A stretch of 64,000 nucleotides of DNA from Eledone cirrhosa. Lineage: Eukaryota. The notes beneath the pieces were generated by a model. It saw nothing but the letters and a program-made list of their open reading frames with translations. It was not told the DNA's origin and ran no database searches. The stretch's first letter is position 1; every line of letters begins with the position of its first letter. Below, piece after piece: positions 6,302 through 44,068 of the stretch. Position numbers and translations under genes: made by a program. The DNA is taken from the NCBI GenBank assembly GCA_964016885.1, contig OZ024740.1, positions 187,736,001-187,800,000 on the forward strand, written 5' to 3'.

Positions 6302-6795
6302 GGTAAATTTCTTTTAGTCGTTTGGAAGCCTTGATAATGAAAATGGGTAAATCTCCGGGTAACAAGATCCGGTGGTGGGGAGAGAGATGTAAGTGGGTGT
6401 ACGTTGAGATGCGTGGCGTGTATAAGACGTGTAGAGGAATGAAGGAAAAGCATAAAGGATAAAATAAAAATAACAACACGAGAGAGAGTTACCTTGGGAG
6501 AGATTTAATTGTCTCTATATATTTCGGATTCACATCCATCAACTGGGTTTTTTTTTCCCGGGTAACTCTCTCTCGTGTTGTTATTTTAATTTTATCCTTT
6601 ATGCTCTTTCATTCATTCCTCTACACGTCTTATACATGCTACACATCTCAACGTACACCCACTTACATCGCTCTGTCCACCACCGGATCTTGTTACCCAG
6701 AGATTTACCCATTTGCATTGTCGAGGCTTCCAAACGACTTAAAGAAATTTACCTTATTATTCCACAATGCTTCAAGCAAACTTCAATACTCTCTT
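6302..6795. repeat. Fold-back insertion in (TA)n: ~190-bp inverted arms plus 42-bp one-sided tail (probable PLE pLTR remnant, family D)
   Basis: 6302-6494 is the reverse complement of 6559-6753 with scattered mismatches. Unique tail at 6754-6795. TA runs on both sides. Confidence 0.75.
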
Positions 6796-7081
6796 ATATA
6801 TATATATAAGTCCATTTCAGAATAATACCAAAAGTGACCGGGTGTATAAGCCCATCAAATACATGTTTCTTTCTGGATGTTTGGATGATGAGGGTCCAAT
6901 TAGGTCTAAATACCAATTAAAGGTGTTCTTGTCATTTTTTTGATTTACAGGAAAATTCGTATTTTTCTGGCTTGTTTACCTGTCTACTTATTAGATATGT
7001 GTAAATTTATATACACATTGGTATGGTCTCAGTTACCCCATCTCTATTTATACAGATAGAAATTTATATATATATATATAT

Positions 7082-8901
7082 AGTAATAATAATAAAATTG
7101 AAGACTAAAATCCAAAGAGGGCTCGATAAGGAAAATATATATCAAATATATAAGAACCGTAGAGCAAATATTTATTAAAATAACAGATTAAAGTTTAAGC
7201 AAAGAATCGCTGCTTTCACCCTTAACGGGATCTTCTGAAACTAACAAAGTCAATCTGTAAACGCAGAACTGGATATTTCAAAAAACGTTGCAACCGGAGG
7301 AAGACAGGAAGACGATACTTTGGTTCGTGGTAACGTTCGCTGGCAAAGAACGGGAAAAAACGAATAATACGTCATTAATAGGAGCGGTGAAAAACAATTA
7401 CGCGCAAAGACAAAACCACGTTTATGGTATAAAAGATGTCGTAGACTAATGTTCTCTTAAGTGGTGCATAGAGACGTTCTCTGGCAATGAACGAAAAAAC
7501 GAAGATAATAAGTCATATGTGGAGCGTGGAGAACAATAGCACGCAAAGACAAAACCACGTAAATGGTATAGCAGAAATCGTAGACTAAAATTCTAACTAG
7601 GAGACCAAATGAATCTCCGCTACAGAGTTAAGAACAAAGTAAATAAATACAATACAGAAGTAATAGAAACAAATAAATACATACACGCAAACAGATACGT
7701 ACATACACAAGCATACGCAAAACCTTACCATGGGTATACAAAACCACGCACATATAAATATGTGTGTGTGTGTATGCTTGTGTACAAATAGATAAATAAT
7801 TATATAAAATTATATAAGTAAATAAATACGTATATAACAAGCGCACACGCATACCTACATATAAATACACGAATGTTCGGAGACGTAAGTCAACTAAAAC
7901 AAGAAGTACACATATACACACACCCACCATACGTACGAACCTGCACACTGACGCGGACGCAAAACTCCCGTATACACATAGCCAAACCCTAAATACCAAA
8001 ATATGTAAAAATGATACGCTATAACAGTCAAGTATACGTACGAGAAGGTATACATACCTTCACAAAACATACGGGTAATATATACTTACCTATGCAAATA
8101 AGTAAAGGAATAAACAAAACATATACTTAGCTCCCACATCAAGACGTAAAATATCCAGTATAGATCGTGGTATCCGTTAGGGTATAACGTGGGGCTGTAA
8201 TACAGGAAAGTTTAGTGCAATTTATGTTTACAAGCCGAAATTGCCTCAGATTTTTGGTTTAAGATGTGGTCTGTAGCGTAGAGTATTTCCAGGGCCTCAG
8301 CGGCGCAGAGGTCACATGGTCTTTTATTTCCGTTATACGATCTAGCCCTAGCTAGGATCTCCCAGTGTAACTTATATTGGGTGTGGTTGTCTTTTAGACT
8401 CCAGATATAAGCTGAAAGTGACGTCATATTCCTTCTTAGAGGGTAACGAAAAGAATGGGTATGCATGTAAAAACGCTGCTTGAAACTATTGGCGGTTAAC
8501 CCTATGTAGGCCCTACGGGACGTGGGTGTTACAACCTTACATTTGTAGACAATGTTACTAGAGAGGCATTTCCCGGATAGGGGGCAATCAGCCCGATTCC
8601 TACAATTACAGTTAGTACTAACTACAGGGTTGCACGTGTTCCTACGGCTAGGTAGTTTAGCTAAATTTGAAGCTGTGATGTTATGTGCAAGGTTAGGAGT
8701 CGTAGAGTAAGAAATTTTAATAGTATTTCTATTAAAAATTTTACTATATTTATGTGTAGGGGGAACATGCTTCATAATAAGGGAAAGAAAGATCTTAGCT
8801 AATGGTGTGGCCACCTCCATATTATATGGTGGGTTAAACCAACAAATGCGACGGGATCTATTTCTTCTAGGTCTATTTTCGTACTCTGTAATATAATAAA
8901 T
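7082..8901 (-). mobile_element. Penelope-like element family A, 5'-truncated: GIY-YIG endonuclease, 3' UTR/pLTR and tail
   Basis: ORF 8212-8820 has [15 protein letters not shown] (CxCx5Cx5C), NIVY...AYIGLT..FKQR..H, CDLC and CKH. Near-identical to 21745-23503. Flanked by (TA)n. Confidence 0.9.
7192..7242 (-). ncRNA. Hammerhead ribozyme-like motif (type I) with variant core CAGAAGA
   Basis: Minus strand reads AGTTT-CAGAAGA-tCCC gttaa GGGt-GAAA-GCA gcgattctt TGC-TT-AAACT. Stems I, II and III pair. Same motif at 23432-23480. Confidence 0.65.
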
Positions 8902-8924
8902 ATATATATATATATATATATATG

Positions 8925-41757: not shown

Positions 41758-43740
41758 TATACAATATAGTAACTCTCAAAAAACCACTCATCCTACAACT
41801 CTAATAAATGGTAATAATAAAACTCCTAATAAACAAGCTAAAACACCTAAATCAATAAATCTAACTAAAAATGTGTGTGGTGAAGTCATTAACAATAATT
41901 CTCTTAATAAACATCAGGATACATCCTATAAAAACAATAAACAGCATCGAAACCGTAATAGACGAGTTACTTGGTATAATGCTCCATTTAATTTACAAAT
42001 TAAGGATAATATACCTAAAAAATTATTTAATATCCTAGAGAAGAACTTCCCGCCAAACCACAAATACCATCAAATTTTAAATAGATCAACGGTTAAATTC
42101 TCCTACTCAACAACCAAAAACATAAAACAAAATATAAGTGCCTACAATGCATATAAGTGTAAAAAAACCATGAGTATACCACCAGTACATCAAACTAACC
42201 ATAATATCTCCTCGGATACAGGATTCACGAAAAGTTGTAACTGTAGAAACAAGGTAAACTGCCCATTAAAAGGAAATTGCCTTGTTAATAACATAGTATA
42301 TAAATGTAAAGTTAACACTAAGGACTCAATTTATTCCTATATAGGAGCTACCTCTAACAAATTTAAGGTAAGATTTAATACCCACAAACATAGTTTTAAA
42401 AATGCCGCACTAGCTAATACAACATCTCTAGCTGAAATAATTAATAATTATAGAAAGATGAATATAGATTATGACCTGACCTGGAGTGTGCTCAAAAGAG
42501 CCACCCCTTATCAAAATAATAGATATGAATGTAGATTATTTTCTCAAGAACTTTTTGAAATAATGAAATCTAAGGATATCCTATTAAATAAGCGACAGGA
42601 ATTAATAATATCGTGTAATCATAAACTGAGAAAAACCTTTAAATATTATAAACCTAATTAATATACATTTTAGAAATTAATATATAAACTGTTTTTAATT
42701 TAGTTAACATATAATTCATATTCTACTACTGATGAACTACATAATTTTACTTTCCTTCTTACAACTATCATTTCCTAAAACTGATACCATTAAGTAAACA
42801 TATAATGCTTTAATTTCAGGTTATGAATCTATGTTCCTTGAAATCTCTATATATTTATTATTTCTCACTAATAAATATAACTCCCCCCCCCCAATAATTA
42901 TATGTATGTGTATGACTGTATATGTGTATGTGTATGTGTGTGTGTATATATATATATATATATATATATATATATATATATATATATATGTGTGTGTGTG
43001 TATGTGTGAGTATGTATATATATATATAAATATATATATATATTATTTTTATATTCTTTTAATTTCCCCTCATCTTTAACAGCACTCTCCAACTACATCT
43101 AACTCTTATTTATCATATCTATATGCATTAGTATAAATTTATCAATATAAATATACCCATCAATTACATTAATTTATATTCTTTTCATGGATGTATTCTT
43201 TTCACTAACACTCTTATTGTAACATTTTAGTCTCCTTAGATATTTGCATTGGCATTACTATTTTATAACACCAACTGTTCGTATACCTTTTACTGACCTG
43301 ACCTATTTTCACCCCTAAAATAACTTTATCATTCTTCACAATCCATTCAAAACTGAAATCTACCTTCTTCTAACCCTAAATTAAACTTCAATTACTACTA
43401 TTTTACCATTTGGCCAATTATTAACTCTCTATTGGTTAATTCTAAACCTGTTACCAAACAGACAGACTATATTAAATCTTTGTTGGTTTTATTCAATGAA
43501 CAAATATAATTATTATCTGAGGTCAGCATACGACCTATTTTCATCCCTAAAATAATCTTTCATTCATAATATTCTTTTCCATCCAAAACTGAAATCTACC
43601 TTCCTCTACCCATAAATTAAGGTTCTTTTACTACTATATTACTATCTTGACCTTCACTATCTTTCTATTGGTCAATTCAAAACCTGTTCCCAAACAGACC
43701 TATTGTATTAAATCTTTGTTTTTTTTCAATAAACAAATAT

Positions 43741-43880
43741 CATTATTTCTGAAGACAGCATATATATGTGTAGGTATGTATATTCCCTCTGATAGTTTGT
43801 ATAAATATTTTACATACATCTATAGAATATGTATACCAACACTAACACATATATATCCTAGAAACGATCTTAAAATGATG
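43741..43880 (+). ncRNA. Hammerhead ribozyme with ~105-nt stem II domain (family C)
   Basis: CATTATTT-CTGAAGA-cagcATATATATGTGT...ACACATATATATccta-GAAAC gatc TTA-AAATGATG. 8-bp stem I. The inverted duplicate near 39715 retains gatcGTA. Confidence 0.7.
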
Positions 43881-44068
43881 AATTTTTTTAATATAAGGAA
43901 CTGTTTCTTTGTTTATTCATTACTTTATTAATTTATCTTGACTCTGTTTTCCATTAATTTTCACCGAAAATAGTTTTTGAATGCATCTTCTCTTTTCATG
44001 ATATCTGGATTACAATGAGTTCTTCATACGGATTGGACACTACCGTAAATTTTTGGTAGATTTATCTA

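Follow-up and report, generated by a model that had tools for sequence, protein, structure and literature searches.

In a 64,000-nt stretch of the Eledone cirrhosa genome (the window; contig OZ024740.1, positions 187,736,001 to 187,800,000 of the forward strand), we found that Penelope-like elements (PLEs) of six families, A to F, have their termini at two sites that are fixed for each family, and that insertions built of two head-to-head arms carry one end of each kind. These family-specific terminus sites were designated S1, which is internal, and S2, the far end of the tail. Sharp termini of this kind, two per family, hold genome-wide; the ends are strictly paired, the two arms share a template and their junctions are end-joined. 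Such insertions probably arise by coordinated twin priming at two protein-selected sites, in which a single complex of element RNA and protein would nick an AT-rich target on both strands, S1 serving to prime one of them and S2 the other. The window has 29% G+C and is dense in (TA)n tracts, in a genome of 3.0 Gb. An earlier reading of the window (the original prediction) had cited ten two-tailed insertions in (TA)n, nine of which belong to the six PLE families. Their inverted pieces were first recovered by self-comparison of the window, and the families were tracked by genome-wide exact-pattern searches and fetched loci, with natural copies as references; reversed-pattern controls in the genome searches gave 0 matches.

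Families A, B, D and F encode Hydra-type proteins, family C encodes a CCHH-type protein and family E is non-autonomous. A complete natural copy of family A, L037, is organized as pLTR-tail-ORF-pLTR-tail (pLTR stands for pseudo-long terminal repeat and ORF for open reading frame), with a unit of 3258 nt and a frame of 712 codons, and this layout is common to B, D, F and C. The tandem units measure 3258 nt in A, 3118 nt in B and D, 3095 nt in C, 4000 nt in F and ~660 nt in E, and frames of 712-786 codons are open in A, B and D. Hallmarks of endonuclease-bearing PLEs are present, namely a single ORF that joins a telomerase-like reverse transcriptase to a C-terminal GIY-YIG nuclease, partial tandems forming pLTRs, inverted 5′-truncated copies and a tail. 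The proteins of A, B, D and F display RWR or RWK, DKT, a CxCX5C linker, and CxxC (CxLC) and CxH around the catalytic E/N, without CCHH; because this motif set fits the definition of the Hydra clade by Craig et al. 2021 (PMC8557442), we tentatively place the four families, which insert into (TA)n, in that clade. In family C the CCHH motif lies within the GIY-YIG domain, as in canonical CCHH-type PLEs, and Pfam matched GIY-YIG in this family and in one window fragment. A Pfam search of the A and B proteins returned no match, and a sequence search of the PDB gave a single weak match, to a retron reverse transcriptase (RT); the structural model of the B protein (pLDDT 94) found the telomerase subunit TERT (3du5, E 1e-8) as its best fold match in the PDB. 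The families had been described as unrelated, which proved incorrect, since A and D share 54% and 43% protein identity with B, and A, B, D and F are related. Family E is a non-coding unit of ~660 bp, often in head-to-tail arrays (e.g. contig C1 near 92.99-93.02 Mb), and with its PLE-type S1 and S2 ends it resembles non-autonomous PLE derivatives.

Every one of the first 30 family A loci stops at S1 (16) or S2 (14). Genome-wide exact counts gave 34,178 anchors for family A, with 13,567 S1 ends and 15,133 S2 ends, and 15,733 anchors for family B, of which 7,128 terminate at S1 and 7,518 continue past it. The same two-end pattern was obtained for C, D, E and F by mapping ends in 30-locus samples; the alignment classes '+33' in A, '+7' in C and '+3' in D represent overrun into the TA-like tail and are S1 ends. 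Both sites are internal to the unit, because in tandem copies the sequence carries on across S2 and into the ORF. The two peaks per family, on opposite ends and in inverted orientation, are a regular outcome, as the original prediction had anticipated, and the reuse of S1 among copies was confirmed for family A (23503, 26701 and 59941) and family B (25245 and 32425). Tails measure 40-135 nt, close to the 40-130 bp proposed.

The same ends were found in raw data. Illumina reads from restriction site-associated DNA sequencing of two other samples, mapped on family B, showed loose ends into (AT)n exactly at S1 and S2 (2,907 and 7,398 reads; 2,596 and 8,050), and some of the reads contain strand-changing joints. 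It is therefore hardly credible that the two-armed copies represent an assembly artefact, inherited palindromes resembling miniature inverted-repeat transposable elements (MITEs), or two adjacent independent insertions: an inherited palindrome does exist in a further family, G (see below), but in the PLE families the junction positions differ between copies, the arms are diverged by 1-15%, the ends are asymmetric and no TA run is found at the junctions. For A to F, these alternatives are largely refuted, and an assembly artefact was rejected.

Pairing of the ends was scored in the first listed places of the searches, mostly on contig C1, together with ~1.85 Mb of fetched DNA, in three overlapping samples (motif-based, A anchors and B coordinates). 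The motif-based count over all fetched DNA revealed S1+S2 in 78/79 head-to-head copies (A 20/21, B 28, C 8, D 17, E 3 and F 2). The first 100 A anchors resolved into 81 parsed insertions and 3 unparsed ones; the parsed set comprised 35 S1+S2, 1 S1+S1, 0 S2+S2, 3 two-armed with another end and 42 single. Five further A copies were S1+S2 on inspection (L033, L059, L073, L085 and L090), bringing the two-armed copies to 40/84 (~48%). For B, 34 rows contained 25 S1+S2, 3 S1 with another end and 6 single rows (two of which are one S1+S2 copy), so that 29/33 insertions (~88%) are two-armed; for D, 40 rows and 1 unparsed contained 17 S1+S2, 2 S1 with another end and 21 single rows (two again one S1+S2 copy), or 20/40 two-armed (~50%). 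These fractions are given for A, B and D; in C and F, many copies extend out of the 3-kb loci on their far side. When head-to-head B pairs were taken by coordinates alone, S1 was combined with a read-through in 61/61 pairs within 500 bp and in 63/64 within 3.5 kb, where half would be expected from independent choice of sites (p = 3e-18). The sole S1+S1 insertion found, L076 (C1 25242851-25246246), is internally rearranged.

The two arms of an insertion are unusually alike. Divergence within an insertion was 1.6% in A, 1.9% in B and 1.1% in D, compared with 3.7%, 4.6% and 3.0% to other copies (2.4-2.7 times closer), which indicates a shared template and excludes chance neighbours, gene conversion being a possible other source of the likeness. 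In 26/35 A, 15/17 D and 24/25 B pairs, the S2 arm continues for over 15 nt beyond S1, so that the arms overlap upstream of S1 in 65/77 pairs and simple, non-overlapping twin priming of the L1 type covers only a minority. Conversely, in 18/35 A, 5/17 D and 5/25 B pairs (28/77) it is the S1 arm that outreaches the S2 arm upstream, by over 15 nt, and in those pairs it was therefore not copied from the S2 complementary DNA (cDNA). In one locus (L001) the S1 end of family A is preceded by a family F-like pLTR in the same orientation, possibly a template switch between families.

These arm extents bear on the published accounts of the inverted pLTR, which in the available parts of the papers invoke antisense self-priming (Arkhipova et al. 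2013, PMC3846280) or endonuclease (EN) resolution (Craig et al. 2021, PMC8557442): the inverted arm would come from fold-back with an antisense strand as template, and an EN cut at S1 would resolve the intermediate. Such a route would give arms sharing a template, some arms do end at almost the same point, and a few junctions are true palindromes (L118). It cannot, however, make an S1 arm that outruns the S2 arm. Moreover, most B junctions are blunt and their two arms stop within a few nt, so that a stem and loop would have no room, and the coincident A and B ends fall at hotspots that single-armed A copies also use. We therefore regard fold-back as unlikely. Among 120 junctions, 11 had microhomology of at least 3 nt, 30 had 1-2 nt, 20 were blunt and 59 were scored as insertions; in B, 23/35 had 0-1 nt, and junction positions vary between copies. 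The short-arm hotspot of A, about 70 nt 5′ of S1, coincides with the 5′ border of stem I in the hammerhead-like motif (window 23431), and that of B, 55-64 nt 5′ of S1, falls in loop II; both are a few nt past a GC-rich hairpin, and they may mark a transcription start, an RNA end or a stop of the RT. Taken together, the arm extents and the blunt junctions argue against fold-back, and priming of both target strands is most likely.

The overlap of the arms could also be explained by two RNAs from one source locus, one per protomer, with an asymmetric dimer forcing S1 on one RNA and S2 on the other. No strand displacement would then be needed in the 65 overlapping pairs, and the long arm lengths are indeed uncorrelated (D rho 0.04). 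This scheme seems less likely still than fold-back: it offers no simple reason for the one-of-each rule, and tail-only S2 arms stopping at about S1 (e.g. 21410-21505, L021 and L042) look like a collision on one RNA.

What selects the two sites was addressed by comparing them with the target. The original prediction had attributed bidirectional priming to the self-complementarity of (TA)n, both nicked strands pairing with UA-containing RNA sites, and most sites do share 2-7 nt with (TA)n. This explanation failed in two families. The 7-nt UAUAUAU tract in the tail of family A is an end in 40 cases against 11,288 read-throughs, whereas S1 and S2 of the same family, with only 3-4 nt of (TA)n match, account for ~13,600 and ~15,100 ends. 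In family C, the description of S1 as TA-containing was not borne out: most S1 ends in the sample run from ...ACC straight into ATATAT where the element continues TTATT, i.e. they begin with A against T in the element, a terminal mismatch. UA pairing was accordingly rejected as the site selector; the 2-4 nt UA(U) match to (TA)n may help priming and does not choose the site. Because the better UA tract of A is ignored and the C ends are mismatched, site choice by protein or RNA context is the better inference, in agreement with Frangieh et al. 2024 (PMC11167929). A candidate for such a context is CUCY (CTCY in DNA): at a distance of 3-10 nt it occurs downstream of each of the ten S1 and S2 sites in A, B, D, E and F, compared with 6-10% of other TA sites; family C has TTAT...TCC at both sites instead. 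Folding of the S1-S2 regions gave no common structure.

S2 is not the RNA's 3′ end as in L1, although a read-through tail retains a small probability. Transcripts of S2-ended copies would run into the flanking (TA)n and pair through a (UA)n tail with the first nicked strand, leaving S1 as the only true internal start. RNAs of this kind can exist, as most S2 ends adjoin (TA)n, and they would likewise give one S1 and one S2; in A, the pure AT run that follows S2 also exceeds the one that follows S1 (medians of 21 and 12), the S1 set including ~10 mutated read-throughs. On the other hand, the length of the AT run is the same after S1 and S2 in B, D and F, S2 ends also occur at targets that have no TA run (L013 and L056) and at (ATT)n targets (L002, L006 and L037), and PAc, the Poseidon element of Anolis, starts internally in vitro according to the available part of PMC11167929. 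We consider this route rather unlikely, on a par with fold-back or slightly ahead of it.

For coordinated twin priming at two protein-selected sites, which we favour, the following course can be proposed. The protein, presumably as a dimer on one RNA, would be positioned by sequence at two sites, with CUCY downstream in A, B, D, E and F. The S2-primed enzyme would usually copy through S1, either pushing the first cDNA off the template or, on a tandem RNA, working from a different pLTR, and both cDNAs would stop independently, often at the family hotspot. Their free ends would be joined head-to-head by end-joining and the host would fill the second strands, single-armed copies being those in which one arm was unmade or lost. 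A bolder proposal, which may be correct but which we would not yet call probable, is that asymmetric twin priming is the PLE default: an RT dimer on one RNA at two CUCY-marked sites, with one protomer per strand, would make one S1 and one S2 cDNA in every event, and would thereby account for tails, for inverted pLTRs and for copies that are simply truncated, without second-strand synthesis by the element.

Several observations weigh against coordinated twin priming. The mechanism is read wholly from genomic end-products. The claim that bidirectional priming is the regular route holds for the two-armed copies at the fractions given above, but about half of the A and D copies are plain 5′-truncated single arms with clean TA flanks and rarely a stub (of at least 6 nt only in L085 among the 43 single-arm family A rows listed). 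The CUCY sites are not independent, as the families are homologous, and the motif is absent from C. The arm-similarity test was uninformative in C. Arms of D end no more than 40 nt apart in 3/17 pairs (0.66 expected, p = 0.02), a pattern to be expected of fold-back or of an RNA end common to both arms. The 59 junctions scored as insertions are often inflated by reference differences, so that the microhomology count is a lower bound. Finally, the start site of PAc is the same for top and bottom strands, and pairing of sites within a molecule is not treated in the available part of PMC11167929. Target-site duplications (TSDs) are mostly unreadable in (TA)n (47/81 pairs with interrupted flanks); duplication-like flanks of 9-19 nt were seen at L013, L062, L143 and L179 and not at, for example, L176 and L353.

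Within the window, eight of the cited insertions were borne out as inverted and two-tailed. The family C insertion (6302-6794) is head-to-head with arms 85% identical, an S1 arm on the minus strand from 6302 and an S2 arm on the plus strand with a 42-nt tail (6753-6794). The family D insertion (19309-20312) has a long S2 arm on the minus strand and a short S1 arm on the plus strand (20264-20312). In family A, a tail-only S2 arm on the minus strand (21410-21505, reference positions 460 to 363) is followed by a plus-strand S1 arm (21499-23505) with an EN remnant (open frame 21429-22463) and the 3′ untranslated region and pLTR. The family E insertion (23533-23765) carries its S2 arm on the minus strand and its S1 arm on the plus strand, as does that of family B (24037-25245; S2 arm 24037-25099, S1 arm 25100-25245). 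Two mini insertions have the opposite order: one of family A (26699-26788), with an S1 arm on the minus strand and a partial-tail S2 arm on the plus strand, and one of family B (32425-32567), with a 9-nt S1 stub on the minus strand and an S2 arm on the plus strand. The family F insertion (39651-44070) consists of a minus-strand S1 arm (39651-39781) and a long plus-strand S2 arm, in which the RT-EN frames are broken and a further insertion is nested at about 40554-41760. For the ninth, a 5′-truncated, S2-ended family A arm on the minus strand (7083-8900), the S2 end is clear and the second tail only probable, resting on a possible 8-nt A/T S1 stub (8893-8900). A plus-strand family A fragment ending at S1 (59593-59943) and a minus-strand, tail-only family B piece ending at S2 (61987-62066) were also found.

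S1 had been placed 18-65 nt 3′ of a hammerhead cut. By our own descriptor, which fits A and B as variants, it lies 29 nt from the predicted cut in A and 20 nt in B; Rfam called a hammerhead in neither family, and in C, D and F the descriptor gave no match. An Rfam scan of the whole window was dominated by microsatellite matches. The hammerhead-like motif of A, defined on the reference copy, spans 23431-23481 on the plus strand (U4>A, U.U at the stem II closure) with a predicted cut after 23476, and that of B spans 25138-25231 on the plus strand, with a large loop II and a predicted GUC cut after 25226. In the B motif, a U3-A8 core pair replaces C3-G8.

The tenth cited insertion, 17880-18325, is not a PLE case. 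It corresponds to the inherited palindromic 3′ part (17882-18323) of a fixed 1.17-kb element, family G (17150-18324, plus strand), which is Helitron-like and non-autonomous with 5′ TC, 3′ CTAG and an A^T target; of 30 loci, many have the identical palindrome and the identical ends. Helitrons are defined by 5′ TC, 3′ CTRR and insertion between A and T (PMC8969392). In family G, T precedes CTGTT at 13/16 5′ ends, CTAG is followed by T at 24/25 3′ ends, and the 3′ hairpin is weak (-5.1 kcal/mol). The family has 779 anchors genome-wide and an unusually long (~440 bp) 3′ palindrome. Additional fragments of PLE endonucleases, from other copies or other families, lie at 31353-32383, 32847-33171, 51149-51400 and 58776-59590. 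Decayed RT elements resembling long interspersed nuclear elements occur at 46012-50021, 55085-56155 and 62136-63542, several of which also end at TA tracts, and related insertions with short tandem repeats at 40554-41760 (nested in the family F ORF) and 52149-53120.

Much of this pattern has precedents: it was already known that PLEs form tails and inverted pLTRs, and that synthesis in vitro begins at two sites, with both strands extended. The in-vitro result, not cited in the original prediction, provides a large share of the mechanism. Frangieh et al. 2024 (PMC11167929; this and the following statements refer to the available part of the paper) reported for PAc two internal RT start sites bounding the tail in vitro, an AT-rich target with both strands nicked and extended, a predicted dimer, and start sites not homologous to the target, features that our families share or are proposed to share. 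The steps after initiation are unvalidated there, and the two sites are not tied to inverted insertions, the word 'inverted' being used only of a blocking dT. Our system differs from PAc in involving Hydra-type and CCHH-type elements, tails of 40-135 nt, strict genomic pairing of S1 with S2 and a repeated CUCY.

For PLEs in genomes, the available parts of Craig et al. 2021 (PMC8557442) and Arkhipova et al. 2013 (PMC3846280) describe a head-to-head 5′-truncated copy, a tail often at one end only, tandem pLTRs, and (TA)n targets for Hydra and Naiad; the latter paper reports the same head-to-head shape with TSDs of 8-10 bp, a further point against (TA)n pairing as the cause, and the former states the origin of tails and inverted pLTRs as open. 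The architecture is described qualitatively in those parts; here it was counted, and the arm geometry speaks against the explanations offered.

In L1, the first primer acts on poly(A) and the second at a variable internal site chosen by pairing, with arms that barely overlap. L1 twin priming, in which both sides of the break prime on RNA and an inversion results (Ostertag and Kazazian 2001, as described in the available part of PMC2246262), is similar in this respect. Our families differ from L1 in that both sites are fixed, S2 is internal, a better UA tract is ignored and the arms overlap in most pairs. Neither the one-S1-one-S2 rule nor twin priming in PLEs was found in our literature searches, older subscription papers lying outside them, and the available parts of PMC13282606 and of the preprint 10.64898/2026.07.22.740005 contain nothing on the rule.

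The one-of-each rule links the start sites seen in vitro to the genomic shape of the insertions and makes a sharp prediction for single molecules. Because this genome has open frames for the B and D proteins (natural copies L371 and L349), sites that are mapped and a candidate motif in cis, the question is directly testable. The RT of PLEs is the sister of telomerase, and a protein-positioned internal template start is therefore of wider interest. For annotation, the tens of thousands of small inverted repeats in this genome are PLE products and not MITEs. Initiation on both strands in one event would likely explain an insertion shape of PLEs that has long been puzzling.

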